Below, one piece after another: positions 56 to 27,322 of a DNA stretch of 64,000 nucleotides. The stretch covers positions 111,025 to 175,024 of the forward strand of contig JBAYUF010000003.1 of assembly GCA_041675205.1 (NCBI GenBank). Reading direction: 5' to 3'. Below the pieces are notes generated by a model. The model saw only the letters and a program-made list of their open reading frames with translations. It ran no database searches and was not told the origin of the DNA. A program made the translations under genes and the position numbers. Source of the stretch: Patescibacteria group bacterium. Lineage in GTDB: Bacteria; Patescibacteriota; Patescibacteriia; GWA2-46-9. Each line of letters opens with the position of its first letter. The first letter of the stretch is position 1.

Positions 56-424
56 ATGGGTGCACAGTTTTTTTCAATTGGCGTACGAACAGTTACTGAA
101 GAACTAATCAGTGCGCCGGTCTGGTGGTATTCTCGGGGATTACAGTTGGCATTTCGCCGACTGCTCGATCGGTTCAGTTATGCCAATAGATACTTGGGCG
201 TAACGGTCTGGGCAAGTAACCTTTTTGTTCCAATGTATGGTCAGTGGGACATTGCCGGCCGGGTTATTAGTTTTTTTGTTCGAGTTGTGCAAACGGTGGT
301 GCGATGTGTCGTGTTTGTACTGTGGGCGCTTACCGACGTCATATTATTTGCTCTGTATATTATATTTCCATTGGTCGTACTATGGCGCATCAGTACAACA
401 CTCATTCTCCTGCTAGCCCAGTAG
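56..424 (+). CDS. small hydrophobic/membrane protein (hypothetical)
   Basis: ATG at 56 after an in-frame stop. The 122 aa product has hydrophobic C-terminal segments. It overlaps the next gene by about 43 nt, so it may not be real. Confidence 0.3.
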   Translation: MGAQFFSIGVRTVTEELISAPVWWYSRGLQLAFRRLLDRFSYANRYLGVTVWASNLFVPMYGQWDIAGRVISFFVRVVQTVVRCVVFVLWALTDVILFALYIIFPLVVLWRISTTLILLLAQ

Positions 425-3093
425 GCGCCGCAATCGTTAGTTGCCCCGCCTGTTTTGGCGAAGGTACAGCGGATTACGCGACGTGCGTTTTGTGCGCCGG
501 AGAGGGAAGTGCCATTAAAGTTGGGAATCACATTGCGTGGCTACCAAATGATTTGTCTGCAGCGCAGTTTCACCGTGAACGTCTGGCAAGTATTTGGCGG
601 ATACTGATTCGAGGAACAATCTTTTGCGGTGCGATTACTGCGTTAGTGTATGCCGCGCTGCTGTTTGAAGCTGGCATCACTGAAGCCATTCTATCTGATT
701 TCGTTTCCGCACTCCTCATTTTTTCGGCAACCGGTGACTCATTTCTCTTTTGGGTCGGTGTGCTCTGCGGGTTGTTTGTGTATGTCAGTATTGAGCGTGA
801 TAGTTATGGCATAAAAAAGATTCCGCGCTTGCCCTACGATGCGTCTTCTGCGGCGCAAAAAACATATCGATTAGATATCTACAGTATGGTATCAGGCGAC
901 GCTCGAAGTTACATTGCTGCCGCAATTATTCGCGCAGACAAGTTTCGACGTCCTTTTCGACCCGCCGATTTATTTCTGTCGCTCATTACTAGTTCGGAAG
1001 TCTCCTTAATGTTGTTGCGACTTGGTGTTCAGCCGGCAGATGCTGGTCGGGCTGTTGTTCAAGAGTTACGTGCGGTCACGTCGACAATTGAAACAACCAT
1101 CGGACAAACGTTACTCCGTGCCTACTTGTCGGCTTACTATGATCGTCGCGAACGGCTTGACTGCTCTGCCTTGTTTGAGGCCACCATTGCACTAGACCCG
1201 GTTGTTCGTGACGTACTGTATGAGCGAGGTATAACAGAAAGTAAAATTCGTCACGTACTTTTGTGGCAGCAGAGCGATCGTCAGCTTCGTCAGCGGTATC
1301 AAAGGTTACGTTCGGCCGCTCGGTTTCGACCGCATTCTCGGCTCGACCGTGCCATGACGGCGGTGGCCACGCCGCTTCTCGATGCTTTTTCTGAGGACAT
1401 CACTGAACAAGCGCAGTATGGTGGTACGTTTCCGTTTGTGCGTCGCAGTGAAGCCATGAAAACTGCCTTACGTATATTTGAAAGCGGTGGTATGCCGCTC
1501 CTTGTTGGCGAGCAGGGGGTGGGTAAGCGGGGTCTGTTAGAAGACTTAGCTGACCGAATGGTGGCTGGTGAAGTACCGGCGGAATTAAAGGACAAGCGGT
1601 TAGTCAACCTTATTTTGCCAAAGTTAGTCAGCGGCGCGAATCCGTCTGAAGCGGCAGAGCGCATTTTGCGAGTTTTAAACGAGGCTAGTCGCTCCGGCAA
1701 CATCGTGCTCGCTATTTCCGGCGTGCACGGTGTGCGTGGCATATCGAGTGGTCAGGCGGGCAGCGTGGACCTGGCCGAGGTATTAGCAACGGGTGTGCGA
1801 CGGTTACGCATTAAAGTGATTGCCACAACAACGCCTGAAGCCAACCGTCAGTATTTGGTTGGGTCTGCCCTGGGTGGCTTATTTGAATCAGTGCTTCTGA
1901 CCGAGCCAACCGTGGAAGAAGCGATTCCTATGGTGGAGTCTCATGCGCTGCTCACTGAGCTGTCACACGGCGTCTTTTTTACGTATGACGCCATAGAGCG
2001 GTTGGTCGATCTGACTAGTCGTTTTTTGCCCGATAAGCGGCTGCCAAAAAAAGCTATTGATCTGTTAGACGAGCTGGCGCTGTACATGAAAGAAACAAGG
2101 CAAAAGAAAAAGGTAATTCGCTCAGGGGACGTTGATAGCTTTCTGTCTTCAAAAATTGATATGCCACTTCGTGATGTATCGCATGACGAGTCGTCACTGC
2201 TTCTAAATTTTGAGGACCGAATACACGAACGATTTATTAATCAAGAGCAAGCGGTCAGTGTGGTGGCTGACGCGCTTAGGCGGGCTCGCGCGGAGATTCG
2301 AGATACGAAGCGCCCTATTGTAAACCTTCTCTTTTTGGGTCCAACTGGTGTTGGGAAAACAGAACTAGCGAAGACCGTTGCGGCGCTCTACTTCGGTGAC
2401 GAAAAGAGAATGGTGCGAATTGATATGTCTGAATATGTTGGTGCTGAAAGTGTTGAACGGTTAACTGGTGGTCGAGCGACAACATATGGCATTCTGACAG
2501 AAGCAGTGCGGGCGCATCCGTTTTCGTTGGTGTTGCTCGACGAATTAGAGAAAGCAGATACACGGGTGCTCAATCTATTTTTACAGATACTCGATGACGG
2601 TCGAGTAACTGCTGGTAATGGGGAAGTTATTGATTTTACGAATACCATCATCATCGCTACGTCAAACGCCGGTACTGAGTATATTCAAGACGCTGTCCGA
2701 CGAGGTGACGAAATGGGTGAAATTGAAAAAACACTACATGAAACGGTATTGAGAAAGAATTTTGCACCAGAGTTCATTAATCGTTTTGATGCAGTGGTGG
2801 TTTTCAAGCCGCTTACCTTACCGCATGTTTCGGCCATTGCCAGTTTGTTGTTAAAAAAAGTTGCGAAGCGAATGGAAGTGCATGGCGTTTCGTTTGTGGC
2901 CTTACCTGCGGCGATAGAAGAATTAGCTGCCGCCGGATTTGATCCACTCTTTGGCGCGCGTCCTCTGCGGCGGGTTATTCAGGATAGAGTTGATTCAGTA
3001 CTGGCCAGGTACTTACTTGAAGGTCGGCTACATCGAAGAGATTCTGTAACGTTAGAGCCGGGCGGTATACTGCGCATTGCGCGACCAGAGTAA
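382..3093 (+). CDS. membrane-anchored Clp/Hsp100-family double AAA+ ATPase (ClpC/ClpE-like) with N-terminal Zn-ribbon and degenerate first nucleotide-binding domain
   Basis: The N-terminus carries a CxxC-x10-CxxC Zn-ribbon (CPACFGEG...CVLCAGEG). About three hydrophobic helices follow, then Clp_N-like repeats. D1 has a degenerate Walker A (GEQGVGKRG) and no Walker B DE (LAISGVHGV). D2 is canonical: Walker [10 protein letters not shown], Walker B LLDELEKA, sensor-1 IIIATSNAG, and a GARPLRR arginine/sensor-2 motif. The start is chosen at ATG 382; ATG 304 is also possible. Confidence 0.75.
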   Translation: MAHQYNTHSPASPVGAAIVSCPACFGEGTADYATCVLCAGEGSAIKVGNHIAWLPNDLSAAQFHRERLASIWRILIRGTIFCGAITALVYAALLFEAGITEAILSDFVSALLIFSATGDSFLFWVGVLCGLFVYVSIERDSYGIKKIPRLPYDASSAAQKTYRLDIYSMVSGDARSYIAAAIIRADKFRRPFRPADLFLSLITSSEVSLMLLRLGVQPADAGRAVVQELRAVTSTIETTIGQTLLRAYLSAYYDRRERLDCSALFEATIALDPVVRDVLYERGITESKIRHVLLWQQSDRQLRQRYQRLRSAARFRPHSRLDRAMTAVATPLLDAFSEDITEQAQYGGTFPFVRRSEAMKTALRIFESGGMPLLVGEQGVGKRGLLEDLADRMVAGEVPAELKDKRLVNLILPKLVSGANPSEAAERILRVLNEASRSGNIVLAISGVHGVRGISSGQAGSVDLAEVLATGVRRLRIKVIATTTPEANRQYLVGSALGGLFESVLLTEPTVEEAIPMVESHALLTELSHGVFFTYDAIERLVDLTSRFLPDKRLPKKAIDLLDELALYMKETRQKKKVIRSGDVDSFLSSKIDMPLRDVSHDESSLLLNFEDRIHERFINQEQAVSVVADALRRARAEIRDTKRPIVNLLFLGPTGVGKTELAKTVAALYFGDEKRMVRIDMSEYVGAESVERLTGGRATTYGILTEAVRAHPFSLVLLDELEKADTRVLNLFLQILDDGRVTAGNGEVIDFTNTIIIATSNAGTEYIQDAVRRGDEMGEIEKTLHETVLRKNFAPEFINRFDAVVVFKPLTLPHVSAIASLLLKKVAKRMEVHGVSFVALPAAIEELAAAGFDPLFGARPLRRVIQDRVDSVLARYLLEGRLHRRDSVTLEPGGILRIARPE

Positions 3094-3098
3094 TCTAT

Positions 3099-4181
3099 AT
3101 GCTGTACGCCATAGCTTTTGGGGCAGCTGGTATTGTGGTGCAATTTTTCATTCTGTTGGTACGCGCCTATGCCAACAGTCGTCACATAGTTGACGACCCA
3201 ACGCAGGACGCCGCACGACGGATGCACACCCGACCTATTCCGCTCCTCGGTGGCCTGGCAGTGTTTGCTTCTATCTTTACTGTGGCATTCTATTTTGGAT
3301 TCATTCGAACAGACCTGGTTACCACCTATCTTAACGCGGGTCAGTTGGTCTGGTTCTTTATTGGTGGGTTCATACTCATGCTTGGTGGTTATCTCGATGA
3401 TCGCTATGGTCTGCCTGCGCCCGCCAAACTGGCTTTACCGGTGCTCGCTTCACTTGCCGTGGTGTTTGGTGGGATTGGGGTCAACTTTATTACGAACCCC
3501 TTTGGCGGCGTCTGGCGCATTGATCAAATAAAGCTGCCAGTGACCTTGGCTGAGGCCAGCTATTTCGTAAATCTTGGCTCAGCACTCTTTACGGTTATAT
3601 GGCTGTCGGTCTTAATGTACACGACGAAAGTTCTAGACGGCCTCGACGGACTGGTGAGTGGCATTGGCTTTATTGGTGCGGCAACAATATTTACGTTGTG
3701 CCTCTTGCCACCAGTACTGCAGCCTGATACCGCATTGTTCGCAGCCATTATTGCCGGCGCATTTTTTGGTTTCTTGCCACACAATTGGCATCCGGCAAAA
3801 CAGTTCTTGGGGGAGTCTGGTAGTCTCTTGGCTGGTTACACAATTGGTGTGCTTAGTATCATTGCTGGCGGGAAAATGGCTACCGCAGCGCTCGTCATGG
3901 GTCTTCCGCTCCTCGACGCTTTTGTTGTCGTTGTGAGGAGGGTGCTTGAGCGAAAAAGTATTTTTTCGGCTGATCGTTCACACCTTCATTTTGTGCTCGT
4001 TGACCTCGGGCTTGGGGTTCGTGGTTCGGTGGCGGTGTTTTTTGCCTGCAGCGCCGCCTTCGGTGCGGCTGCGCTTTTCTTGCAATCCACCTATAAACTC
4101 TACGCATTGGCGTTTCTCGGAGTGCTTGCCGGAACGATTATATTCGGTCTACCATTTGCCAAACGGGTTATCGGTAAGTAA
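3099..4181 (+). CDS. GT4-family polyprenyl-phosphate sugar-1-phosphate transferase (WecA/MraY-like)
   Basis: The N-terminal motif ...HIVDDPTQDAARRMHTRPIPLLGGLAV and the DDRYGL and KVLDGLDGL motifs are typical of the MraY/WecA family. The protein is polytopic. Confidence 0.8.
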   Translation: MLYAIAFGAAGIVVQFFILLVRAYANSRHIVDDPTQDAARRMHTRPIPLLGGLAVFASIFTVAFYFGFIRTDLVTTYLNAGQLVWFFIGGFILMLGGYLDDRYGLPAPAKLALPVLASLAVVFGGIGVNFITNPFGGVWRIDQIKLPVTLAEASYFVNLGSALFTVIWLSVLMYTTKVLDGLDGLVSGIGFIGAATIFTLCLLPPVLQPDTALFAAIIAGAFFGFLPHNWHPAKQFLGESGSLLAGYTIGVLSIIAGGKMATAALVMGLPLLDAFVVVVRRVLERKSIFSADRSHLHFVLVDLGLGVRGSVAVFFACSAAFGAAALFLQSTYKLYALAFLGVLAGTIIFGLPFAKRVIGK

Positions 4182-4195
4182 TTCCAGTTAAATCT

Positions 4196-5683
4196 ATGAC
4201 TGATAGGCAAAAGTATCGTTTACTCGAGGCAATTCCAGGTACCCTTACCTGGTTTACCTTTACTTTGGCAATCCTACTTTCAGTGGTCAAACCACTGTGG
4301 GCTATAGCGCTTGTCATTCTTTTTGACCTTTACTGGCTCCTCCGGGTTGGTTATTTCGTTTTCTACCTCATTCATTCCTGGCGCATTCAGCGTCGAGAAT
4401 CGCGACGAGCATGGTGGGATGAATTACGGGTAACGTATCCATCATGGGGTGAGTATTACCATATAATTTTTTTACCAACGTACCGGGAATCGAAGGAGGT
4501 CATTGAAACAACACTCACTCGCTTTACGGAAATTGCGTACGACCCCAAACGACTCATTGTCGTTTTGGCTGGAGAAGAGCGAGATGCTGAAAATTTTTCA
4601 GCACTGGCCCGAGAATTAGAAGCTCGTTACGCGTCGCATTTTCATGCCTTCATTACGACGCTTCATCCGAAAGATTTGCCAAATGAAATTCCGGGTAAAG
4701 GCGCCAACCTAAATTGGTCAGGGCATCGTGTGCAAGAATACGTTGATGAACAAAAACTCGCTTATGACAAACTCATCGTATCTGCGTTTGATGTTGATAC
4801 AATTGTCGCGCCACAGTATTTTGCCTGCTTAACCTATACGTACCTCTCGCAGCCAAATCCGCAGCGGTCAAGTTACCAACCAGCCGTTGTTTATAATAAT
4901 AATCTTTGGGAGTCGCCGGCGTTGGTTCGCATTGCCGCCATGGGCACAACATTCTGGTTGATGACCGAACTCGCTCGGCCAGAGCGACTCTTTACATTTT
5001 CGTCGCACAGCATGAGCTGGCAGGCGCTCGTTGATGTTGGCTTCTGGGAGAAGCGAATTGTCACCGAAGATTCGCGTATTTTCTTGCAGTGCTTCCTGCA
5101 CTATGAGGGTGACTACGTCGTTACGCCAATGTACGTGCCAGTATCGATGGATATGGTGGCGGCTGGTGGGTACGTGAAAAGTTTAGGGGCACTGTATCGA
5201 CAGCAGCGACGCTGGGCGTGGGGCGTTGAGCACTTACCGTTCATGCTGTGGAACTTCCGAAAACACCCAAACATTCCGATGCGAAAAAAATTGTACTACC
5301 TCTGGAATTTGGGCGAGGGTATGTATACGTGGGCCACAGCACCAATTCTTATCACCGTGCTTGGCTATCTACCGCTCTATTTGGCGCCGCTGAACATTGC
5401 AGAAGTTGCGCTCACACAGAATGCGCCGGCATTACTTGAGTTGTTACTACGACTCGCCATGGTGGGTATTTTTGTAAGCGGTATTTTGGGTATGTCGCTC
5501 TTGCCACCTCGGCCAAACACTGTACCGGCGAACAGATACCTCATCATGATTTTACAGTGGGCACTGTTACCGTTCACGCTAATTTTATTTGGTTCGCTAC
5601 CGGCAATTGATGCGCAAACGAGACTCCTTCTCGGCAAGCACCTCGGTTTTAACGTCACACATAAGGTACGAAAGTCGTCATGA
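4196..5683 (+). CDS. membrane processive family-2 glycosyltransferase (cellulose/chitin-synthase-like)
   Basis: There are N- and C-terminal TM segments, a DVD (DxD) motif, and a Q(Q)RRW motif (YRQQRRWAWG) characteristic of processive GT2 enzymes. Confidence 0.7.
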   Translation: MTDRQKYRLLEAIPGTLTWFTFTLAILLSVVKPLWAIALVILFDLYWLLRVGYFVFYLIHSWRIQRRESRRAWWDELRVTYPSWGEYYHIIFLPTYRESKEVIETTLTRFTEIAYDPKRLIVVLAGEERDAENFSALARELEARYASHFHAFITTLHPKDLPNEIPGKGANLNWSGHRVQEYVDEQKLAYDKLIVSAFDVDTIVAPQYFACLTYTYLSQPNPQRSSYQPAVVYNNNLWESPALVRIAAMGTTFWLMTELARPERLFTFSSHSMSWQALVDVGFWEKRIVTEDSRIFLQCFLHYEGDYVVTPMYVPVSMDMVAAGGYVKSLGALYRQQRRWAWGVEHLPFMLWNFRKHPNIPMRKKLYYLWNLGEGMYTWATAPILITVLGYLPLYLAPLNIAEVALTQNAPALLELLLRLAMVGIFVSGILGMSLLPPRPNTVPANRYLIMILQWALLPFTLILFGSLPAIDAQTRLLLGKHLGFNVTHKVRKSS

Positions 5684-6669
5684 GCGTTCGTATCGTACTT
5701 GTCACGAGAAACGGGCTACCCATTGTTGAAGAGTCCTTGTCTGCCATTGCTAGCTATAGCGGTGGTGCACAGGTGAGTTTGCTAGACAATGGTTCGACAG
5801 ACGGAACAAGTGCCGTTCTTCGTGCATGGGCCATGCAGCACAATGCAGAGCTATTAATCTCAGAAACAAACACCGGTTTTTCAGCCGCCTATAATGCTTT
5901 ACTGCGACAGGGGAGTGAGCCATATCTCTTGGTATTAAATCAAGATGCGGTGTTGAGTTCCGGCTATGTGGATGCATTAGAGAAAGTGCTCGGTGAAGTG
6001 CCTGAGCTAGCGTCAGTTAGCGGAACGCTACTCCGCAGGGATGACGTCGTAACAAATGTTATCGACGCGCAGGGGCTTACAATTCATGCAACGGGTCGGG
6101 TAGTTGAGAGAAACCGCGGACAACAATTTAAAAATTCGACCACGGAGTTACAGTACGGTTTTGGTAATCCCGCCACAGCTACGCTGTATCGTCGCTCAGC
6201 ACTGCAAAGTATCGCCCTTGGCACCGCCGTACATCCACAATATTTTGATGAGCACTTCTTTGCCTATAAAGAGGATGTTGACCTCGCGTACCGTCTGGCA
6301 CTTGCCGGTTGGAAGTCTGCGGTCTTACCGAATGTTGTCGCCAGTCACATTCGCTCAGTCCGCGGCATTGCGGACGACCAGCAAGAAATTGGGGGGCGGC
6401 GTACGGCTGCGGCATGGCTTGCCCGGACTGATCTCCAGCAGTACCTTTCTTATCGTAACCACCTATATTTTCTTTTTGGTACCGCGCTCGTGCGGCGAAA
6501 CTATGTTTCATTGCCGCTCGTTATTATGTACGAAAAGATAAAGGCGTTTATGGTACTCATTACCCGACCACGACAATTTTTTCGAGCGTGGGGCGAGGTA
6601 TTTGGTAATCGTGAGTATTTGAAGGAAAAGCGTAAACACACTCGTGCTCTTAAACGGGTTCAGGTATGA
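5680..6669 (+). CDS. family-2 glycosyltransferase
   Basis: A GT2 N-terminal fold is indicated by LVTRNG...LLDNGSTDGT. The gene overlaps the upstream gene by an ATGA junction, consistent with an operon. Confidence 0.75.
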   Translation: MSVRIVLVTRNGLPIVEESLSAIASYSGGAQVSLLDNGSTDGTSAVLRAWAMQHNAELLISETNTGFSAAYNALLRQGSEPYLLVLNQDAVLSSGYVDALEKVLGEVPELASVSGTLLRRDDVVTNVIDAQGLTIHATGRVVERNRGQQFKNSTTELQYGFGNPATATLYRRSALQSIALGTAVHPQYFDEHFFAYKEDVDLAYRLALAGWKSAVLPNVVASHIRSVRGIADDQQEIGGRRTAAAWLARTDLQQYLSYRNHLYFLFGTALVRRNYVSLPLVIMYEKIKAFMVLITRPRQFFRAWGEVFGNREYLKEKRKHTRALKRVQV

Positions 6670-7448
6670 AACTTTCAATTGTTATCGTAAATTATAATAC
6701 CGCTGGATTGCTTCGTGAATTTTTGCGCGCCATTTTTGCGAATCCGCCGGAGATTCCATATGAGATTATCGTTGTTGATAATGGCTCACGGGATAGAAGT
6801 ATTGAAGTACTCAAAGAGTTTTCTGGTCGAGTACAGGTGATAGATACAAAGCGTAATCTTGGATATAGCCGCGGCACTAATGTTGGTATTCAGACGGCAC
6901 AAGGGGAGTTCATACTGCTCGCTAACACCGACCTCGTTTGGGAGCCTGCGGCTGTTCTTTCGCTTGTTGCACATGTAGAGGCAAACCCAAAGGTTGGTGC
7001 CGTCGGACCCAAATTATTGAATCCTGATTCCTCGCTTCAGTATTCCTGCTACCGTTTTCATACACTACTCACCGCGTTGTACCGTCGCACGCCGCTTGGA
7101 CGAACGCAGACGGGAAAGCGTGAGTTAGCCCGATTTCTCATGACGGATTGGTCGCACGACGAAACGCGAGCAGTTCCCTGGTTAATGTCGAGTTGTCTAT
7201 TACTTCGTCGCGCGGCAATGACTGCGGTGGGCAATTTTGATGAACGCTACTTTGTCTATTTCGCCGACACGGATTACTGTCGCCGGTTATGGTTGGCGAA
7301 CTGGGAAGTGCATTACCTGGCTTCGGCCTCGCTGATACACTTTCATAGACGTGAATCAGCTGACGACTGGCGCACTGCGATTATTCATAGTAAGGATCTT
7401 TTGCGATATTTTTGGAAGTGGAGAAGGTCAGTGCCGCCGCGCGTTTAG
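6666..7448 (+). CDS. family-2 glycosyltransferase
   Basis: GT2 signature MKLSIVIVNYNTAGLL...IIVVDNGSRD; ATGA overlap with the previous gene. Confidence 0.8.
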   Translation: MKLSIVIVNYNTAGLLREFLRAIFANPPEIPYEIIVVDNGSRDRSIEVLKEFSGRVQVIDTKRNLGYSRGTNVGIQTAQGEFILLANTDLVWEPAAVLSLVAHVEANPKVGAVGPKLLNPDSSLQYSCYRFHTLLTALYRRTPLGRTQTGKRELARFLMTDWSHDETRAVPWLMSSCLLLRRAAMTAVGNFDERYFVYFADTDYCRRLWLANWEVHYLASASLIHFHRRESADDWRTAIIHSKDLLRYFWKWRRSVPPRV

Positions 7449-7487: not shown

Positions 7488-8495
7488 ATGTGGTCAAAGA
7501 AAATTGCCATTGATCTTGGCACAACAAACACATTGGTGCATTTGCCGAAGCGTGGCATTGTTATCAATGAACCATCCGTTGTGGCCATTTCTATCGTGGA
7601 CAAAAAGATTTTGGCAGTGGGGAACGAAGCAAAAGAAATGCTTGGCCGAACGCCAGAAACAATTGTCGCGCTCCGACCACTGAAAGAAGGCGTCATAGCA
7701 GATTACCGAACCACCGAAGCCATGCTTCGTTATTTCATAAATAAAGCTTTAGGTGGTGTTCGTTTTTTTCGACCGGAAGTAATGGTAGCTGTCCCCGCCG
7801 GTATTACCGCCACAGAACGTCGCGCCGTAATCGACGCTTGTATGGCGGCCGGCGCCAAAGCCGCGTTTATCATTAAAGAGCCTATTGCTGCTGCCATTGG
7901 TGCAAACATTCCCATTGGTTCGCCGTCAGGCCACATGATTATCGACATCGGTGGTGGTACATCTGAAATGGCGGTTATCTCGCTCGGTGGCATTGTATCG
8001 AGCACTTCAGTGCGCATTGGTGGCACGAAATTTGATGCCGCCATCATGGAGCATATTAAGAAAAAGTATAACTTGGCTATTGGTGAACGAACGGCAGAAG
8101 AAATTAAAATTGAAATTGGTTCTGCGCTTTACCTCGACGAAAAATTAAGTATGAACGTTCGTGGTCGGGACACCCTTACAGGACTCCCACAAACTATCAC
8201 CGTGACGTCTGACGACGTGACCGACGCTATTCAAGCTGAGTTAGAAGGAATCATTGACGCCACAAAGTCCGTTTTGCAGCACACGCCACCAGAGCTTTCG
8301 GCCGATGTCATCGACAAAGGCATGGTGCTTTCAGGTGGCAGCTCATTACTCAGAAATCTTGACCAACTGTTGAGTCGTGCCACTGGTGTGCCAGCGTACG
8401 TGGCGGATGACGCTTTGCTCTGCGTTGCGAAAGGTACTGGCATTGCCCTCGAGAATTTAGAAGCATATAAGCGAAGTATTTTGGCCACCCGCTAG
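7488..8495 (+). CDS. mreB: rod shape-determining actin homolog MreB
   Basis: Actin-fold phosphate-1 motif IAIDLGTTNTLV and MreB-typical motifs are present along the full length. Confidence 0.9.
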   Translation: MWSKKIAIDLGTTNTLVHLPKRGIVINEPSVVAISIVDKKILAVGNEAKEMLGRTPETIVALRPLKEGVIADYRTTEAMLRYFINKALGGVRFFRPEVMVAVPAGITATERRAVIDACMAAGAKAAFIIKEPIAAAIGANIPIGSPSGHMIIDIGGGTSEMAVISLGGIVSSTSVRIGGTKFDAAIMEHIKKKYNLAIGERTAEEIKIEIGSALYLDEKLSMNVRGRDTLTGLPQTITVTSDDVTDAIQAELEGIIDATKSVLQHTPPELSADVIDKGMVLSGGSSLLRNLDQLLSRATGVPAYVADDALLCVAKGTGIALENLEAYKRSILATR

Positions 8496-8499: not shown

Positions 8500-9240
8500 A
8501 TGCCGGAAGGAAATAGTCGAGTAAGTGAAACAAGCGGTCCAAATATTAATGACTGGGCAGAGGCGGTTAGACCCATTGATGAAGCGTTCGCCGACCGAAT
8601 CGGAATACCTCGTCAGGAAGGGTATCGAGCTGGGGCGGAAATTGGCTTACCAATGCCAGACAGCCGAACGCTTTCACTTCCTGATTTTTTAATGTCGCCG
8701 AACGAGCATCTCCAGCAGTTTGATTCTGAGTGTTATATAGTTGCACTGCTGCCTCACGATGCAAATTTGCCACGAGTATCAACTGCAAGGCTAGATTCGA
8801 ACGATATAATTTCTCTCGTGCACGATAAAGTTCCGGAAGCGGTTCGTGATTCCTATGATATTCGTTTGATGCCATATTACGACGTAAAATACGGTGGCAA
8901 TATAGTCGCGAATCCCAATGGTACGATGCATGTTGAATTCCGACAGGGACTTCCCGGGCCGGTGGCCTATGGTACCGAAACGCCACCGTTTTCTGCTAGT
9001 CGGGATCAATTTTTGCATAGCTTCAAATACAGTTTCGAAGATGAAGATTTGCGTAAGCAGATTTCGGAGGTTATAGCCCACATCCCGCATTCCGGAGAGG
9101 CGAGGGAAACACAGTATCACCCAGGCTACTATGAATTTATAGTCGTGGATAAGGGTGACAAAGCCCCATTAAAAACCCTCTTTATAGATTATCGTGATGA
9201 CCCAAGTTATTTTACCGATAGTGGCCCCAAGGCGGTTTGA
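8500..9240 (+). CDS. hypothetical protein (occupies the position where mreC is often found but shows no MreC features)
   Basis: A 246 aa ORF lies directly after mreB. No recognisable motifs. Confidence 0.45.
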   Translation: MPEGNSRVSETSGPNINDWAEAVRPIDEAFADRIGIPRQEGYRAGAEIGLPMPDSRTLSLPDFLMSPNEHLQQFDSECYIVALLPHDANLPRVSTARLDSNDIISLVHDKVPEAVRDSYDIRLMPYYDVKYGGNIVANPNGTMHVEFRQGLPGPVAYGTETPPFSASRDQFLHSFKYSFEDEDLRKQISEVIAHIPHSGEARETQYHPGYYEFIVVDKGDKAPLKTLFIDYRDDPSYFTDSGPKAV

Positions 9241-14317: not shown

Positions 14318-15262
14318 ATGGCTGACAAAAACAACAAACCAGCAGCGATAACACCGGAAGAAAAAAAACACATGCACGATGTTGTTATAGAGTGGATAGG
14401 GGACACAGAGAAAGAAGAGAAGGAAAAAGCAAAGCCGCGTGTAAAAAAATCTGCACCACCGGTAGTCAAACCAAAAGAGGTTGCACAGCAGCCCGTGGTT
14501 ATGAAGCCTGCACCAGAGCCGAAACCAAAACCTAAGCCAGAAGTTGTCGTTAACCCTTTTGCTGCCGTTGAAACAACTGAAGAAGGTTACGCAGCCCCTA
14601 AAGAGATAACGAGCCCAACACCAGTACTCATGTTGCCAAAGCCGCACGTGCGACTACTGCCGATACTGTATAAGATTGCGCTCGCCTGTTTTATTGCTGT
14701 AGTTCTGACAGCGGGTGTAAGTGCGAAGTACAAAAAGTTTGATTACCCGTATCGGTATGCGCTTTCCTTTGTGCCACTGCCGTACGCCTCTCTTGGGACG
14801 CACCCAGTATTACTGAGTAAGGTCTTGGATGAAGCGGATGCAGTGAATAAATTTTATCAGCAGCAAAGCATCCCAGAATCCGCTCGGCCTTCCTTGGCAG
14901 CCATGCGTGATCAAGTGGCGAGTGAAGCCTTACGGCGCGCAGCGGCGAACGCCATAGCGGGTCGTTATGATGTTCGGGTTAGTAATAGTGAGCTTGCGGA
15001 AGCAACACAGAAACTCATCACAGAAGCTGGCTCACGCGAAATAGCTGAAGACGCTATAAAAAATCTTTGGGGGTGGAGCCTCAGAGATTACCAGCAAAAT
15101 GTCATTGAGCCCTATCTCTTGAAGCAAAAACTTGCTGAGGCATTAGCTAAGGATCCTTTAACAAGTCGCTTAATTCCACCAGGTAGCGATGGAGAGGTAA
15201 TTGATAATTATTTGGATACTATTGTGGAAAGTCGAGCGAGGATTTATTTGCCATTGCAGTAG
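14318..15262 (+). CDS. hypothetical membrane protein with Lys/Pro-rich low-complexity region
   Basis: A PEPKPKPKPE tract and one TM segment. No motifs. Confidence 0.45.
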   Translation: MADKNNKPAAITPEEKKHMHDVVIEWIGDTEKEEKEKAKPRVKKSAPPVVKPKEVAQQPVVMKPAPEPKPKPKPEVVVNPFAAVETTEEGYAAPKEITSPTPVLMLPKPHVRLLPILYKIALACFIAVVLTAGVSAKYKKFDYPYRYALSFVPLPYASLGTHPVLLSKVLDEADAVNKFYQQQSIPESARPSLAAMRDQVASEALRRAAANAIAGRYDVRVSNSELAEATQKLITEAGSREIAEDAIKNLWGWSLRDYQQNVIEPYLLKQKLAEALAKDPLTSRLIPPGSDGEVIDNYLDTIVESRARIYLPLQ

Positions 15263-16567: not shown

Positions 16568-17287
16568 ATGAAAAAAGAAGAAGTACAAAACTCAAAATCA
16601 AACAGAATGGTTTCATTACGTACGGTCAGTAAACATTATCCAGATGGAACGATTGCACTTCGGGGAGTGACGTTCGACGTCGAACCCGGAGATTTTATAT
16701 CTATTGTCGGTCGCTCTGGCGCTGGAAAGAGCACTCTGGTGCGAGTACTCCTCGCTGAAGAGCGGGTTACACGAGGGCAGGTCTCCATTGGTGGCTGGGA
16801 TATTACCGACATCGCTTCTCGGGATGTTGCTAATTTGCGGCGTCAAATTGGGGTCGTTTTTCAAGACTATAAACTACTGCCCAGAAAAACAGTGCTAGAA
16901 AATGTTGCCTTCGCTCTTGAAGTTTGTGGCATTCCGTCACGCCGCATTAACGAGGTTGTTCCGCAAATGTTGAAGTTGGTTGGTTTGGAAGGAAAGCGCC
17001 ACCAGTTTCCAGAGCAGCTTTCCGGTGGTGAGCAGCAACGGGTGAGCATTGCGCGAGCGCTTGTGCATCAGCCGAGACTTTTAATAGCTGACGAACCAAC
17101 GGGTAACCTCGACACTATTAACACGCAAGAAATAATTGAGCTTCTTAGAAAGATTAATCAGCTTGGAACAACTGTGCTTTTGGTTACGCACAATCGAGAT
17201 GTGGTGAACGCACTGAAACGCCGAGTCATAACGTTAGATGGGGGAGCAGTTGTGTCTGATCAATCAGTTGGTCGTTACGTTTTGTAA
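16568..17287 (+). CDS. ftsE: cell-division ABC transporter ATP-binding protein FtsE
   Basis: Walker A GRSGAGKST, the ABC signature LSGGEQQR and Walker B LLIADEPT are present. It is paired with ftsX. Confidence 0.85.
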   Translation: MKKEEVQNSKSNRMVSLRTVSKHYPDGTIALRGVTFDVEPGDFISIVGRSGAGKSTLVRVLLAEERVTRGQVSIGGWDITDIASRDVANLRRQIGVVFQDYKLLPRKTVLENVAFALEVCGIPSRRINEVVPQMLKLVGLEGKRHQFPEQLSGGEQQRVSIARALVHQPRLLIADEPTGNLDTINTQEIIELLRKINQLGTTVLLVTHNRDVVNALKRRVITLDGGAVVSDQSVGRYVL

Positions 17288-17288
17288 T

Positions 17289-18203
17289 ATGTTGACCGCC
17301 CTACTTAGAGTTGGAAAATTTGCCGTGCAATCAATGGTGCGGAATATCTGGCTGACCATTGCAACATTTAGCACCGTTGCGCTTACCGTGTTGGCGCTTA
17401 GCTCGCTGTTAGCGGTAAACGTTGCAGTGAACCAAATCGTGGCTTCGGTTGAGGATCGCATTAACGTAACCCTTTTCTTGCACCCTGTTACCACAGAGTC
17501 GCAAGCTAATTCTTTTATTTTAGCCATCAATGCCTTGCCTGACGTTTCGAACGTAACATTTCAAACCAGAGAACAAGTCTTGGCCGAGCAACTAGCAAGT
17601 GGGGACCCGGTTGTTTTGAAGTCGCTTGAGGCACTCGGTGAAAACCCATTTGGTCCGGCGGTCACGGTAGAGTCAAAATCGCCGGAAGGGTATTTACGCA
17701 TCATCCAAGAATTGCAGCAGCCGCAATTTGCAAACCTTATTGAAGGGGAGCAGAAGAATTTTGAAGAGAACCAGGCGTTCTTAAATGGATTGAATTCGTT
17801 TGCCAAGAAAATACGACTGGCAGGACTGGTAGTGGTTTGCTTCTTTGTTTTAATCAGTGCGTTAATGGTGTTTAACGCCATTCGGGTTGCCATATACACG
17901 CAGCGACAGGAAATAGGCGTTATGAGGCTTGTAGGGGCGTCTGTGGCCTTCATTCGTGGCCCGTTACTGTTAGAGCTAGTGTTTTACGCCATTGGCGCAG
18001 TGGTCATTGCAAATGGGGTAATCATCTATATCTTCAAGCTGGCGCAAGGTAGCTTTGATAGTTACTTCGGGCCCGGCATTATAAATGTGTCGAGCTACTT
18101 TATAGAGAACGCTCCAGCAATAATGGGTGCTGAGTTCCTCCTCATTTCGGTGCTTGGTTCATTAAGCACATATTTGGCTATACGGAGGCACCTTAATAGC
18201 TAA
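17289..18203 (+). CDS. ftsX: cell-division ABC transporter permease FtsX
   Basis: Topology is FtsX-like: TM1, a large periplasmic loop, then three C-terminal TMs. ATG 17289 immediately follows the ftsE stop; the ORF track gives 17238. Confidence 0.8.
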   Translation: MLTALLRVGKFAVQSMVRNIWLTIATFSTVALTVLALSSLLAVNVAVNQIVASVEDRINVTLFLHPVTTESQANSFILAINALPDVSNVTFQTREQVLAEQLASGDPVVLKSLEALGENPFGPAVTVESKSPEGYLRIIQELQQPQFANLIEGEQKNFEENQAFLNGLNSFAKKIRLAGLVVVCFFVLISALMVFNAIRVAIYTQRQEIGVMRLVGASVAFIRGPLLLELVFYAIGAVVIANGVIIYIFKLAQGSFDSYFGPGIINVSSYFIENAPAIMGAEFLLISVLGSLSTYLAIRRHLNS

Positions 18204-18361
18204 TAGCGCGTGGCAAATAGCAAATGGCTGGCGCAGGAACGGGTGCAAGGCGCGGGAGAGAAGGTTTACAGTATTGAGTAAATAGCGTATAGAAAATAGC
18301 TAATAGCACTGAGTGATGAGCCTTCCATAGGCCATTTGCTAACGGCTATTTGCCACCCTGG

Positions 18362-18435
18362 TGGGGGATCGTCTAATGGTAGGACAGCGGCCTTTGAAGC
18401 CGTGAATCATGGTTCGAATCCATGTCCCCCAGCCA
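18362..18435 (+). tRNA. tRNA-Gln (anticodon UUG), CCA encoded
   Basis: Acceptor TGGGGGA/TCCCCCA, anticodon loop CTTTGAA, T-arm CATGG-TTCGAAT-CCATG, discriminator G, then CCA. Confidence 0.85.
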
Positions 18436-18960
18436 AAAAATCTTTAACCCCTGGCGGGTTGGAGATTTTTTGTTTGAGAGATATGATGGATTCGAACCAG
18501 AGGCGAAGGGGTTCCGCCAGAGGCGGACAAGCTAGAGAAGCGATTGACGATGGTTCTAGTCCCGTGAAGCGGGACGGAATCATGTCCCCCAGATATCTTT
18601 AAGAAAAACCTCCCGGTCTTCCTTAATATTCCTTTCCCTCGGCTAAGGTCGTTCAGAAATCATTTCACACGACAGCGAGCTAAGCTCTACGGCCGTCGTG
18701 CTCACAATTTCTTCACTCTAGTAAGACAGAACAATCTAAATAGTTTTAGGGAAGTAAACGAGAGTTGTGACCGATTCCCCCAGCCAAAAATCCTTGGCCC
18801 CCATTGTGGGGCTGAGGTTTTTTGATTGTAGGAGTATAATGGATTCGAACCAGGCGAAGTGGGTCCACCAGAGGGGCACAGGCCAGAAAAGCAGACGACG
18901 ATAGTTCTAGTCCCGAGAAGCGGGACGGAATCATGTCCCCCAGCCATCTTGAGATAGGTT
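18436..18960 (+). repeat. array of degenerate tRNA-Gln-derived repeats (pseudo 3' ends TCCCCCAG(CCA) at 18585, 18776 and 18936), two ~180 nt units plus a copy of the ~120 nt tRNA-downstream element
   Basis: Unit 1 (~18446-18592) and unit 2 (~18796-18946) align along their length. Each ends with GCGGGACGGAATCATG^TCCCCCAG, which is the tRNA-Gln 3' part with the T-arm deleted. Each contains an inverted T-arm-like GGATTCGAACC. Unit 2 starts with a second TTCCCCCAGCCA. Confidence 0.7.
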
Positions 18961-18986
18961 ATTGCGAACGAGGTGTATAGATAAAT

Positions 18987-20204
18987 ATGAATTTGGTTAA
19001 TAAATTTTTTTTAGACAAAGTAAAGCAAGATGAGCTAGAAATGGTACTCTTGTCTTATTTTGGGAGAGGAAATGGTCCACATGAAGGCAAATCTGTATAC
19101 CATAAAGAAGACGATGACAGTTTTTCCGTAACTATTTATTATGGTTCGAGCGGAGAGATCCAGTCAATAGAAAATGGTTCAAAACTTAGCGAGAGAGATA
19201 TAAATGAGATTTTACAGAAAATATCTGATGAGTTAATCGGCGCTCAGGAAGTAGTCGTCGCTAGGGATATTTGTTTTGTAACAGGTTCTAAGGTTGAAGA
19301 GTATTTTACATACAAGGATATATTTCAAATACTGCCCATGCCGTCTGATGCTCCTCAAATACAAAACCAAATGTGGGGGCATCACCCAATTTTATTAGAA
19401 TACAAATATGTTTCATCAAAAAATACTCTAGTAAATGGGTTTAGAAAAAGTAAAAAATTCAGAGAATTAATCACGCTGTTACATTTATTGTCGCAAAGAT
19501 TTTATGGTCCTTCTAGATTTGGTCAGTCTGACTGGGTAGTTATTAGTAATGAAGATATAGAAAAGACAACCAGCGAATTTAAACAGATGGGCTATTGGTA
19601 TAGTAAAAAATTCCAAACCGATAATTCATTTTCATCGACAAAAGGTATAAAAGAGGTTGAATTTGGAAAAAGTAAAAGCAATGAGCTGACTTTTATTGAA
19701 GACGCTGATAAATTGTTAGATATTATTTTTATATTGGATCATGACAGATACTCAAAATTCATCACTTCCTGCTATTGGTTTTATACAGCAAACGAGATCT
19801 GGAAAACTTCGTATTCGGTTTCGTATGTTTGTTTGGTAACGAGTATCGAATGTCTTATGAGCAATGTAGAAAAGTGTGAGTGCGGATCAGCTCTTACAGA
19901 TAAATCTATAGAGAAATGCGAAATATGCGGTGAACCGAAATATAGGATAGGAAAAAGTTTCAAAGACTTTCTAGAAAAATATTCCAATGAGGAATACTCT
20001 AAACTATCCAAGGAAGAGAAAAGTTATATTTACAATATTAGATCCACCATGCTTCATGGAGAAAGAGTATTTACTAGAGACTTTGAACCAATGGGATTCT
20101 TGGGATATCAAAAATCATACGAAAGCGCTTTTCATCGCACGATTTCAAGTTTAGTCTTCGGTGCTTTGATTAACTGGCTTTCTGATAATAAAAAGGTAAA
20201 GTAG
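18987..20204 (+). CDS. hypothetical protein with CxxC...CxxC zinc-ribbon and possible HEPN-like Rx4H motif (defence candidate)
   Basis: Contains CECGSA...CEICGE and, near the C-terminus, NIRSTMLHGE (R-x4-H). AT-rich codon usage. A good RBS GAGGTG precedes the ATG. Confidence 0.5.
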   Translation: MNLVNKFFLDKVKQDELEMVLLSYFGRGNGPHEGKSVYHKEDDDSFSVTIYYGSSGEIQSIENGSKLSERDINEILQKISDELIGAQEVVVARDICFVTGSKVEEYFTYKDIFQILPMPSDAPQIQNQMWGHHPILLEYKYVSSKNTLVNGFRKSKKFRELITLLHLLSQRFYGPSRFGQSDWVVISNEDIEKTTSEFKQMGYWYSKKFQTDNSFSSTKGIKEVEFGKSKSNELTFIEDADKLLDIIFILDHDRYSKFITSCYWFYTANEIWKTSYSVSYVCLVTSIECLMSNVEKCECGSALTDKSIEKCEICGEPKYRIGKSFKDFLEKYSNEEYSKLSKEEKSYIYNIRSTMLHGERVFTRDFEPMGFLGYQKSYESAFHRTISSLVFGALINWLSDNKKVK

Positions 20205-20309
20205 TGTCGCATTTGTCGCTTTGAATCCGTTGCGAAGAGCCTCAAGGTGTTATAATAAAGAACATCAGAAAACACTTTTCTGCTTCCTTCTTGTAATAGA
20301 ATCATTTAT

Positions 20310-21032
20310 ATGAAACACCAACTTCTTTATAAGGATCTCGCTCGTTATTACGATCATATTTATTCATTTAAAAATTACGAGGCTGAGACCAAGGAACTGC
20401 GTAGTCTTATTGAAAAATATAAGCGTTCCAAGGGAAGCGACATGCTCGACATTGCCTGTGGTACCGGGAAACATTTAGCCTATTTCAAGCGTTGGTATTC
20501 GTGTATTGGGGTTGATGTTAATGAGGGTATGCTACGGGTGGCCCGGAAAAAGATTAAAGGTGTCGTTTTTAAAAAAGGTGACATGACGACACTGAAACTC
20601 AATCGGACTTTTGACGTTATTACCTGTTTATTTAGTTCAATAGGATATGTTCGCACCTATGCAAACCTAGGAAAGACTATCATTGCTTTGTCTAAGCATT
20701 TGAAGCCAGGTGGTGTGCTTATTATTGAACCCTGGTTTACGCAAAAAACATATCGGCCAGGCTTACCGCATATGACGACATACAGTTCCCCGGATATAAA
20801 AATTGCGAGACTTAATGTAAGTGAACGTCGTGGCAGTGTGTCGGTCATGGATATGCATTATCTTGTCGCCGAGCGGGGGCATAAGGTGAAATATTTTGTT
20901 GACCGCCATGAACTCGGCATGTTTGAGCCAGATCGTTTGATAGGTCTAATGCGAAAGGCAAACCTCGAGACGCGCCTTGCAAAGTCAAAACTGATGAAGG
21001 ACCGCGGGTTGTATGTTGGCGTTAAGGTTTAA
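20310..21032 (+). CDS. class I SAM-dependent methyltransferase (TylM1/DesVI-like small-molecule methyltransferase)
   Basis: The N-terminal Y..YD.IY...Y..E pattern and SAM motif I (LDIACGTGKH) resemble sugar N,N-dimethyltransferases. Confidence 0.65.
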   Translation: MKHQLLYKDLARYYDHIYSFKNYEAETKELRSLIEKYKRSKGSDMLDIACGTGKHLAYFKRWYSCIGVDVNEGMLRVARKKIKGVVFKKGDMTTLKLNRTFDVITCLFSSIGYVRTYANLGKTIIALSKHLKPGGVLIIEPWFTQKTYRPGLPHMTTYSSPDIKIARLNVSERRGSVSVMDMHYLVAERGHKVKYFVDRHELGMFEPDRLIGLMRKANLETRLAKSKLMKDRGLYVGVKV

Positions 21033-21072
21033 AAAATTTGTATTAGGCGTATTGGCGTGCATTTAAAAAAAT

Positions 21073-21819
21073 ATGGATGAAGAAATAAAGATCAATGAAT
21101 TCAATAAAATTTTAGAGCAGGCAAAAAATGACGATAGGGTTATCGGGCTAATTTTAGCTGGCGGACGCGGCAAGGGCATGTTCACAGAAAATTCTGATTA
21201 CGACGTTGCTATAATTACAACCGATGAATCGATTTTAGGTGTTAAGGAAGATTACAAAGGCACACAAGATATTATTGATATAGGGGTATTATCGATATCT
21301 GAATTTAGAATATATGCAGCAGTAGGAACAGCGGAAGACTGGGATAGATATACTTACGCACATATAAAAGCTCGCATTGATAAAACAGGAGAAATCCAAA
21401 AGATAATTGATGAAAAAGGTATTTTGCCGCAAGAGCAAATATCAAAAGTAGCAAAAAAAGCTTTGTGTGGTTATCTAAATTCTTTGTATCGTGCTTTAAA
21501 AAATCACAGAGACGGAAACGAATTTGCCTCGCGTTTAGACGCTTGTGAATCTTTGCCTTGGTTACTAACCTTTCTCTTTGCAGTTGAGGGGCGAGTTCGT
21601 CCGTACAATAAGTTTCTGAAATGGGAACTTGAGAACTATCCATTAAAGAATCTACCAATCTCATCTGAAGATTTTTTAGCAAAAATCGAATTAATTATCA
21701 AAATAGGCGATATTGAAATCCAAAAAGAATTTCATAAAATTGCAGAAGAAATTGCAGTAAAAAATGATTGTGTTGATGTGATAGACGACTGGGCAGGATA
21801 TTATTTTGCTAGAGAATAA
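21073..21819 (+). CDS. nucleotidyltransferase-fold protein, ANT(6)/AadK-like
   Basis: The N-terminal minimal NTase motif GGRGKG...SDYDVAII and the overall length match aminoglycoside 6-adenylyltransferase-like proteins. Confidence 0.5.
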   Translation: MDEEIKINEFNKILEQAKNDDRVIGLILAGGRGKGMFTENSDYDVAIITTDESILGVKEDYKGTQDIIDIGVLSISEFRIYAAVGTAEDWDRYTYAHIKARIDKTGEIQKIIDEKGILPQEQISKVAKKALCGYLNSLYRALKNHRDGNEFASRLDACESLPWLLTFLFAVEGRVRPYNKFLKWELENYPLKNLPISSEDFLAKIELIIKIGDIEIQKEFHKIAEEIAVKNDCVDVIDDWAGYYFARE

Positions 21820-21825
21820 TTAAGC

Positions 21826-22942: not shown

Positions 22943-22977
22943 TTGTAGGAGTATAATGAATTTGAACCGGGCGAAGG
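22926..22977 (+). repeat. third copy of the GGGGCTGA...TTGATTGTAGGAGTATAATG(G/A)ATT(C/T)GAACC...GGCGAAG element
   Basis: Near-identical to 18806-18863 over about 50 nt. Confidence 0.6.
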
Positions 22978-23065
22978 GCTTGGGAATCGGAGGCTGGCAA
23001 ATTGGGTAATCTGATCCAAATACTTTTTAGGAGACTAGTGGTGTAAAGAAAAGGGAGAAATAATT

Positions 23066-25778: not shown

Positions 25779-25782
25779 ATAT

Positions 25783-27318: not shown

Positions 27319-27322
27319 ATAT

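Follow-up and report, generated by a model that had tools for sequence, protein, structure and literature searches.

A membrane-anchored Hsp100/Clp-like ATPase with a degenerate first AAA+ module, encoded between a small membrane protein and a GT4-type sugar-1-phosphate transferase in Patescibacteria

In the genome of a Patescibacteria group bacterium (GenBank assembly GCA_041675205.1, contig JBAYUF010000003.1), a stretch of 64,000 nucleotides (nt; positions 111,025 to 175,024 of the forward strand, hereafter the window, from whose first letter all coordinates are counted unless another locus is named) opens with densely packed genes, among them one for a membrane-anchored Hsp100/Clp-like ATPase of 903 amino acids (aa; 382..3093, +). 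Its start overlaps by 43 nt the 3' end of a small partner gene (56..424, +), which encodes a 122-aa membrane protein predicted to form a helical hairpin and lacking any family assignment. Downstream follow, on the same strand and with intergenic gaps of -4 to +39 nt, the genes for a GT4-type polyprenyl-phosphate sugar-1-phosphate transferase of the MraY/WecA superfamily (3099..4181, +; PF00953), a 495-aa synthase-like GT2 membrane glycosyltransferase with the motif QQRRW, resembling the cellulose and poly-N-acetylglucosamine (PNAG) synthase type (4196..5683, +), two further GT2 glycosyltransferases (5680..6669, + and 6666..7448, +) and MreB (7488..8495, +; PF06723, E 3e-134), the GT2 and mreB genes being lineage-specific additions. 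The open reading frame (ORF) of the ATPase spans 304..3093 (+), and the start codon ATG 382, giving the 903 aa, is used both by the NCBI Prokaryotic Genome Annotation Pipeline (MFA7286545.1) and in an independent gene call on the identical contig. A GTG start overlapping the stop codon of the small gene was considered as well; the codon at 421-423 is GTA, so ATG 382 was kept. In the public record, the protein is labeled "ATP-dependent Clp protease ATP-binding subunit".

On the identical contig (locus L089), six further same-strand genes with glycan or surface functions precede the small gene in tight packing, encoding a phosphoglycosyl transferase (Bac_transf PGT), three GT1 enzymes, a DUF4012 protein and a CLIPPER/CARDB protein. 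Because these six genes and the small gene stand upstream, the ATPase gene is located in the middle and not at the head of an envelope cluster of about 13 genes. A first-pass annotation made from the letters of the window had described an atypical membrane-anchored Clp-like ATPase heading a polysaccharide-synthesis operon. This observation is confirmed as a whole, and the co-directional genes for GT4, the QxxRW-type GT2, two more GT2 enzymes and MreB are present as described; the position at the head of the operon, however, is refuted by the overlapping small gene and the six genes beyond it. The most tightly linked partner, the small upstream membrane protein, had been overlooked.

Pfam models matching the window ATPase are AAA_lid_9 (aa 511-577, 7e-12), AAA_2 (aa 644-804, 1.3e-47) and ClpB_D2-small (aa 811-890, 1.3e-18), with neither an AAA match for the first AAA+ module (D1) nor a match to Clp_N, and the top NCBIfam model is ClpB (TIGR03346) at 466.9 bits versus a cut-off of 1232.1. 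The AlphaFold2 (AF2) model, like all structure models considered here that of a monomer, reaches a mean predicted local distance difference test score (pLDDT) of 88.9 and a predicted template modelling score (pTM) of 0.77. From the N-terminus, it presents a small beta zinc-finger module, a long helix (residues 60-101), a short one of 9 residues (106-114), a third helix (118-142) and then the folds of Clp_N, D1 and the second AAA+ module (D2). In Foldseek searches, the model fits ClpC and ClpB protomers at a target TM-score (TMt) of about 0.8, with ClpC protomers ranking on top. A phmmer search of PDB sequences with the N-terminal 330 aa gave no match.

The N-terminal zinc finger (aa 21-42; 442..507, +), assigned by motif inspection and Pfam, is probably of the DnaJ type and bears the CxxCxGxG motif twice, as CPACFGEG and CVLCAGEG. 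For the window ATPase, DnaJ_CXXCXGXG (PF00684) is the best Pfam match of the N-terminus (E about 2e-3, below the cut-off), and among five family N-termini it ranks first or second in all of them (18.7-22.1 bits, E 2e-4 to 2e-3, cut-off 32.7 bits), anti-TRAP being matched as well. Scores below the cut-off are expected, as the region corresponds to half of the DnaJ cysteine-rich domain. In a motif-by-motif census of 100 family members, to which all counts per hundred given below refer, at least one CxxCxGxG is present in 59 and two are present in 31 sequences. Hence, the zinc finger is optional within the family.

Two transmembrane (TM) helices follow. TM1 (about aa 76-98; 607..675, +) is indicated by hydropathy, the AF2 helix 60-101 and a preceding flank rich in lysine and arginine (K+R), TM2 (about aa 121-138; 742..795, +) by family alignment, hydropathy and AF2, the latter helix containing a conserved FW motif. 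Throughout the family alignment, two hydrophobic blocks are conserved and connected by a loop of median 11 aa which is not basic, and the mean K+R content amounts to 4.4 in the 20 aa before TM1 and to 4.2 after TM2. Alignment and model thus show a two-helix hairpin by which the ATPase is anchored in the cytoplasmic membrane, in N-in/C-in orientation as indicated by the K+R-rich flanks on both outer sides. With this topology, zinc finger, Clp_N and both AAA+ modules reside on the cytoplasmic face.

The subsequent Clp_N-like double-repeat N-domain (about aa 167-300; 880..1281, +) was identified by hhalign, the family profile of aa 167-300 matching canonical Clp N-domains with a probability of 98.8% (E 1.1e-16, 139 columns). 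By virtue of this profile match the Clp_N call is correct despite the Pfam miss in the window sequence; PF02861 is found in many homologs. Clp_N and D1 are connected by a linker with the family-specific, near-invariant motif RLDRAMTAVATPLLD (aa 320-334; 1339..1383, +), in which R323, T326, A329, T330 and L333 are invariant (alignment A1) and which is not found in the canonical Clp consensus; RLDRAMTAVATP is a stretch of the ATPase linker. In the AF2 model, the motif is a low-confidence coil with weak confidence at residues 319-326, and it is considered a candidate docking or pseudo-substrate element.

D1 with its lid domain (1399..2112, +), delimited by alignment and family census, aligns with residues 161-407 of E. 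coli ClpB. When reading its motifs by alignment to E. coli ClpB and to the ClpB encoded in the window itself, Walker A is GEQGVGKRG instead of the canonical G..GVGKT, Walker B is AISGVH in place of FIDELH (DE to SG), the pore loop SGAN-PSEAAE replaces AGAKYRGEFE with deletion of the tyrosine, and the arginine fingers are lost in ALGGLF as compared to ALERRF (RR to GL). The census reveals the same pattern for the whole family. The P-loop position is occupied by lysine in 87 and by arginine in 11 members, and GK[T/S] is retained in 24/100. A canonical Walker B DE pair is found in none and any acidic pair in only 8/100, not a single sequence combining GK[T/S] with an acidic Walker B pair. Arginine at the finger positions (7/100) and an aromatic pore-loop residue (1/100, with tyrosine lost in the other 99) are similarly rare. 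Judged by these motifs, D1 is confirmed as a putative pseudo-ATPase, catalytically dead across the family, in which the P-loop lysine is kept.

D2 with the D2-small domain (2311..3051, +; Pfam, alignment and census) possesses intact ATPase motifs in the window protein, namely Walker A GPTGVGKTE, Walker B LLDELEKA, sensor 1 TSN, arginine finger NRFD and sensor 2 GARPLRR, and all five are kept in 98-100 of the 100 members. The D2 pore loop, canonically bearing GYVG, is however shortened and devoid of an aromatic residue in 89/100, whereas an aromatic is found in 11, of which seven retain the ancestral GAPPGY. In the window ATPase the loop reads GGRATTYG, with a tyrosine placed within the shortened loop. 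A universal loss of the D2 pore-loop tyrosine, considered as well, is ruled out by the GAPPGY members and this residue. As the loop is shortened and aromatic-free in the large majority and GAPPGY persists in the seven, canonical threading is probably lost or relaxed in most, not all, of the family. The segment from sensor 1 to PEF has no IGF-type ClpP-docking loop and always comprises 33 aa, as in ClpB, compared to 39 aa with LGF or VGF in ClpC-like references, and merely one of the 100 members contains a chance IGL. Likewise, no middle domain (M-domain) was found in the D1-D2 linker P555-Q621, which is 65 aa long (63-68 in the family) versus 123-124 in ClpC-like and 188 in ClpB references, no coiled coil is seen in the AF2 model, and PF02151 (UVR) does not match the window ATPase.

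Hence, several elements of the first-pass architecture are borne out: the Clp_N-like repeats by the hhalign result, the degenerate D1 upon proper alignment, and the missing IGF-type loop and long middle domain by the fixed segment lengths. Membrane tethering, as opposed to a classical cytosolic ClpC, ClpA or ClpB, is also upheld, and a soluble protein starting downstream of the TM region, which had been named as the outcome that would overturn this, is contradicted by the family-conserved N-terminus. The proposed N-terminal zinc ribbon persists as a two-motif cysteine zinc module, but its type is probably that of DnaJ, and D2 is canonical with regard to its ATPase motifs but not to its pore loop. 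The about three TM helices have to be reduced to two, as the short AF2 helix 106-114 lies between the two long ones and only two hydrophobic blocks appear in the family.

For delineating the family, protein databases were searched with the window ATPase, resulting in 25 full-length relatives (P0001-P0025; 36-52% identity, 79-99% coverage) which bear Patescibacteria names where named, followed by ordinary ClpB and ClpC proteins matching the C-terminal part only. The N-terminal 330 aa alone retrieved 136 representative clusters out of 1.84 billion; the length of most is 850-940 aa, and their alignment sets in at about residue 17-20. In total, the family comprises at least 100 sequences, all from metagenome-assembled genomes (MAGs) of Patescibacteria type, which shows the window ATPase to be a member of a Patescibacteria-restricted Hsp100/Clp subfamily. 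A bona fide ClpB with all canonical motifs, also named ClpB by NCBI, is encoded elsewhere in the window (59556..62279, +; TIGR03346 1259.5 versus a cut-off of 1232.1). Therefore, the membrane-anchored ATPase is an additional, specialized paralog and not the housekeeping chaperone. Among the ORFs scanned in the window (at least 150 aa for ClpP), neither ClpP nor ClpX was detected, a statement confined to the window and not extending to the whole genome. A literature search did not bring up a description of a membrane-anchored Clp/Hsp100 protein or of a Clp variant from Patescibacteria, which is not proof of absence. An anti-phage defense function was considered and dismissed, since PADLOC gave only generic D2 matches (DolB and PDC-M37B, aa 604-879), none of them full-length, and did not match GT4 at all.

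The small partner protein has a basic N-terminal part of 83 aa and a charge-free hydrophobic C-terminal part of 40 aa. Its AF2 model (pLDDT 93.9) is a helical hairpin of helices 2-47 and 66-121 with a loop at 55-65, and the motifs P.WWY..G, W..N.F.PM.G (in the window protein the loop NLFVPMYGQ) and S...R are invariant (alignments A2 and A4). No match was obtained in Pfam, NCBIfam or PADLOC and no fold match in the PDB, and the protein is annotated as hypothetical everywhere. In all eight loci reached from the ATPase side, an upstream gene of 119-126 aa homologous to 56..424 of the window is present (alignment A2), abutting or overlapping the ATPase start by 1-40 nt in six of them, separated by 89 nt in L006 and by a GIY-YIG gene in L002. 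When GTDB species genomes were scanned with the small protein as independent probe, 510 matches were obtained, the best 80 loci of which were analyzed; where a name is given, it points to Uhr-, Magasanik-, Falkow- or Buchananbacteria or to the Parcubacteria group, or the host is unclassified. An ATPase ORF lies next to the small gene in 77 of these 80 best loci (77/79 informative ones), with its start at -127 to +123 nt. The gap between both genes in the 77 loci has a median of 3 nt and is at most 12 nt in 64, and the genes overlap in 23. Of the other three loci, one has no room for an ATPase gene and two (L019 and L043) are without it, the latter representing possibly a solitary small protein or a rearrangement. 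Many of the cassette-bearing MAG records (L013, L015, L017 and others) are titled "uncultured Gammaproteobacteria bacterium" (Third Party Annotation (TPA) assemblies), likely a placeholder or mislabel because the gene order of the cassette is shared with Patescibacteria-labeled loci.

The transferase encoded directly downstream of the ATPase matches PF00953 at 90 bits and is termed "MraY family glycosyltransferase" by NCBI. Among NCBIfam models, the window GT4 reaches 90 bits with WecA and 40 bits with MraY, both below the cut-off. Together with six orthologs, seven enzymes score 68-103 bits with WecA (TIGR02380, cut-off 326) and 40-67 bits with MraY (TIGR00445, cut-off 192), the MraY score always being lower than that for WecA. 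The nearest solved relative is human DPAGT1/GPT. The idea that GT4 is the MraY of the cell, arising from a dcw-like context (division and cell wall gene cluster) in some loci, was rejected on the basis of the NCBIfam scores. Accordingly, the protein is best classified as a putative divergent polyprenyl-phosphate sugar-1-phosphate transferase and not as the MraY of the cell.

An orthologous GT4 gene is located downstream of the ATPase gene in 60 of the 67 loci which extend at least 1.3 kb beyond the latter, at a distance of up to 150 nt in 47 and with a median gap of 9 nt; from the ATPase side, a PF00953 GT4 was found just downstream in 7/8 loci. In the 43 loci with full flanks, the Clp-like gene is present in 43 and GT4 in 38, followed by genes for DUF192 (23), L21 (22) and the group mraZ-rsmH-p112 (19-20), p112 being a gene of about 112 aa. 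GT2 genes (2-3), the QQRRW GT2 (2) and mreB (1) are rare, mreB being downstream in L001 and L006 as well. Thus, the conservation of the neighborhood assumed in the first-pass annotation is real for GT4 but not for the GT2 and mreB genes, and the envelope-glycan link survives by way of GT4, whereas the GT2 enzymes and MreB belong to the closest relatives only. Upstream, the window lineage has Bac_transf PGT, three GT1, DUF4012 and CLIPPER genes, whereas other lineages have mraZ-rsmH-p112, or FtsW, pilin and GIY-YIG (L002), or large surface proteins. Since the trio of small protein, ATPase and GT4 stays constant while the upstream context changes between lineages, it is shown to be a conserved three-gene module, a pattern that typically marks a functional unit. 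The statements on the architecture of the ATPase and on this module are made with high confidence.

Some further genes accompany the trio. DUF192 follows GT4 in the 23 full-flank loci mentioned (for example L003 11763..12245 and L004 12422..12904) and might belong to the module as a more loosely attached fourth component; the DUF192 gene of the window (45007..45492, +) is 40 kb away from the cassette. In about 19 of the 43 loci, the p112 gene, which is without Pfam match, is flanked by rsmH and the small gene (L003 7212..7550; L004 7226..7567) and thereby occupies the FtsL position of dcw clusters. In the window lineage, genes for a DUF4012 protein (about 790-850 aa) and for a protein resembling CLIPPER/CARDB (307-609 aa) directly precede the small gene (L089 5847..9999; also in L001, L006 and L008), and the cluster encodes two different priming transferases, PGT and GT4. 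The 246-aa ORF right after mreB (8500..9240, +) has no match in Pfam or NCBIfam, and in L006 a 255-aa gene (14321..15088) holds the same position. At the other end of the window, a TagA/WecG-family glycosyltransferase fused to NUDIX is encoded (58275..59519, -). Enzymes of the TagA/WecG class act after primers of WecA/TagO type in teichoic-acid and enterobacterial common antigen (ECA) pathways, and the gene would fit a lipid-linked secondary glycan pathway. Such a fusion of TagA with NUDIX is unusual; its gene and that of the bona fide ClpB are divergent neighbors.

Compared with characterized systems, the ATPase belongs by descent and fold to the double-ring class I of Hsp100/Clp proteins but falls outside each of the named subfamilies ClpB, ClpA/ClpC/ClpE and FtsH by their defining features. 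ClpB is the best overall sequence match and shares Clp_N, the D1 fold with AAA_lid_9, D2 with D2-small (about 38% identity between the D2 modules of the ATPase and the ClpB of the window) and the 33-aa segment without ClpP loop. The ATPase, however, attains only 467 of the required 1232 bits, has a linker of 65 aa where the ClpB M-domain coiled coil takes 188 aa, and differs in its dead D1, the loss of the pore-loop tyrosine in most members, the N-terminal zinc finger and the membrane hairpin. With ClpA, ClpC and ClpE it has the double-ring layout and Clp_N in common, as well as the missing long M-domain with ClpA, an N-terminal cysteine zinc module with ClpE (and ClpX), and the top Foldseek matches and the public name with ClpC. 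Unlike these, it is membrane-anchored and without the IGF/VGF/LGF loop and the UVR or short M-domain, D1 is dead, TIGR02639 (ClpA) scores 382 bits versus a cut-off of 993, and its zinc motif, CxxCxGxG, is probably that of DnaJ. The N-terminal two-TM anchor and an AAA+ ring at the cytoplasmic membrane face resemble the established architecture of FtsH, which belongs to another AAA+ clade and has one AAA+ module instead of two Clp-type ones; the ATPase is without an M41 peptidase domain (no Pfam match) and, with an external loop of median 11 aa, without a periplasmic domain.

Among type II AAA+ proteins, one non-hydrolyzing ring is known from NSF (D2) and PEX1/PEX6 (D1), where the P-loop is kept and hydrolysis residues are lost. 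There, one tier plausibly serves assembly and the other is the motor, and D1 of the ATPase may be similar in this respect, although NSF and PEX1/PEX6 represent other clades with other cellular roles; within Hsp100/Clp, both rings are to our knowledge normally active. The GT4 enzyme shares with MraY, WecA, TagO and DPAGT1 the PF00953 domain, the DD and DGLDGL motifs and the H-x-H motif ("SHLHF"), but scores below the equivalog cut-offs of both WecA and MraY. That an AAA+ ATPase can be devoted to tuning an envelope glycosyltransferase, and not to general proteostasis, has a precedent in SpoVK, which promotes the cell-wall glycosyltransferase MurG (PMC11513918). SpoVK belongs to another clade, has a single AAA+ ring and is not described as membrane-anchored (PMC11513918), and MurG is a peripheral GT-B enzyme in contrast to the polytopic GT4 of MraY/WecA type; no homology is implied.

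Taken together, the ATPase is best read as a membrane-tethered, D2-driven and non-proteolytic remodeling enzyme that works where the synthesis of a lipid-linked envelope glycan is primed, a proposal to which we assign about an even chance of being correct. According to this proposal, the ATPase would form a membrane-tethered ring, as the conserved D2 arginine finger and sensor 2 imply inter-subunit catalysis, with D1 as nucleotide-binding structural tier and D2 as sole motor. It would degrade no substrates, given the missing ClpP interface, and would work without DnaK, given the missing M-domain. Its client might be a membrane component at the priming step of the glycan pathway, with GT4 as the likely target whose assembly or activity would be remodeled in an ATP-dependent manner, and the co-translated small protein might function as adaptor or as regulated client. 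Because most members have lost the pore-loop tyrosine, the action would probably not be a tyrosine-gripped full threading; instead of processive threading, the ATPase could grip and pull a short element or bring about a conformational change in the manner of a switch. For the same reason, the term unfoldase used in the first-pass annotation is doubtful, the D1 tyrosine being absent in 99/100 and the D2 aromatic in 89/100.

Several observations weigh against this proposal. Loss of the pore-loop aromatics makes any remodeling mechanism uncertain and, conversely, the seven GAPPGY members and the tyrosine in the loop of the window protein leave threading possible. We infer an interaction within the trio, be it physical or functional, from synteny, sequence and models. 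In L019 and L043, the small gene is present but tblastn did not find a Clp-like gene in the retrieved flanks, and in 7 of the 67 informative loci GT4 was not in the retrieved flank. In addition, L21, RecR and DnaB are often syntenic with the trio, too, and all members come from one uncultured clade, so that some of the linkage could be inherited gene order. Finally, GT4 scores below the cut-offs for both WecA and MraY, and these comparisons do not assign a substrate to it.

If the linkage to GT4 were indeed only inherited order, the ATPase might serve in general membrane-protein quality control as a tethered disaggregase or extractase, comparable to the AAA+ part of FtsH without its protease. 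The Hsp100 ancestry, Clp_N and DnaJ-type zinc finger as typical substrate- or adaptor-binding modules, the FtsH-like two-TM anchor, the equally syntenic housekeeping genes for L21, RecR and DnaB and the canonical GAPPGY loop in seven members would agree with such a role. A generalist unfoldase is, however, hard to reconcile with tyrosine loss in most pore loops, and the coupling to the small protein and GT4 is tight, often overlapping, across four upstream contexts, and about 40% of the members do without the zinc finger. Hence, we regard quality control as an unlikely, albeit serious, alternative. A specific control device is speculative and rather improbable: the trio might constitute an ATP-driven membrane switch for envelope-polymer initiation in which the small protein binds GT4 as inhibitor or activator and the tethered Hsp100 loads or strips it without threading. 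The Hsp100 would then act as a gate for the priming of cell-wall glycan, perhaps coordinated with the dcw/division program. A conceptual parallel is protein E, a small membrane protein of a phage that inhibits MraY with the help of a cytosolic chaperone. A closer connection to division or elongation, with the trio as part of a reduced dcw-type cluster and the ATPase using ATP to scaffold or switch the assembly of divisome or elongasome instead of serving a separate glycan pathway, would be in line with mraZ, rsmH and the 112-aa gene in FtsL position immediately upstream in about 20 of the 43 full-flank loci, with FtsW/RodA near the trio in L002, with mreB downstream in the window lineage and with GT4 being of the MraY superfamily. 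But GT4 is not an MraY ortholog (40-67 bits versus 192, WecA scoring higher in 7/7), the trio of the window lineage is placed without dcw context inside a glycan cluster of PGT, GT1, DUF4012 and GT2 genes, and in the loci inspected neither Mur nor Fts genes lie next to the trio, making this function improbable.

Two explanations would deny the protein its special status altogether. Degeneration of the D1 catalytic residues and of the pore loops could be taken as signs of a decaying, functionless ClpB paralog, which is nevertheless highly improbable in view of D2 catalytic motifs kept in 98-100 of 100 members, the many invariant positions including those of the family-specific linker motif, the conserved length and gene order and the 510 species genomes matched by the probe for the partner gene. 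That an ordinary soluble ClpC or ClpB has been extended by a mis-called start, leaving zinc finger and TM segments untranslated in reality, is hardly credible at all. An in-frame methionine at aa 168 ("IYSMVSGD") near the start of Clp_N and the public name of an ATP-dependent Clp protease subunit would be compatible with it. Yet, the 136 clusters found with the N-terminal 330 aa are mostly of 850-940 aa and align from about residue 17-20 onward, and CxxCxGxG, the two hydrophobic blocks and their positive-inside flanks are conserved in the family. Moreover, with the upstream gene stopping at 424, there would be no explanation for about 450 nt of conserved in-frame sequence if translation began later, and the degenerate D1 and the missing M-domain and ClpP loop hold for whatever start.

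Patescibacteria are a large, mostly uncultured group with minimal genomes and poorly understood envelope biology, to which a module of three genes retained by hundreds of species probably makes an important contribution. The conserved trio provides a testable handle on envelope control in these bacteria and suggests a control point in envelope synthesis that has not been studied, although all functional claims derive from sequences, structure models and gene order of uncultured bacteria. According to the general view, Hsp100 proteins work by means of two active rings and tyrosine pore loops. Judged by its motifs, the ATPase appears to be without these two features usually general to Hsp100s, two active rings and aromatic pore loops, and the family is thus a natural experiment on the capabilities left to an Hsp100 ring when canonical threading is missing. 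As the protein has no ClpP interface, the "Clp protease" annotation is misleading, and counting it as ClpC or ClpA in metabolic or proteostasis reconstructions would be wrong. The small partner, being without any family assignment, represents a new family to be named.

Two observations concern other parts of the window. GC content drops to 0.34-0.43 in a stretch at about 18000..36000, compared to about 0.48-0.50 elsewhere, and genes for a fusion of RadC-JAB with a D12 N6-adenine methyltransferase (23066..24883), a second D12 methyltransferase (24873..25778) and an AlwI-type restriction endonuclease (25783..27318) are found there; the stretch is probably an acquired restriction-modification island. 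Besides, components of cell-wall hydrolase control, an FtsE/FtsX-like ABC pair and an M23 peptidase, are encoded in the window at 16568..18203 (+) and 55581..56951 (-).

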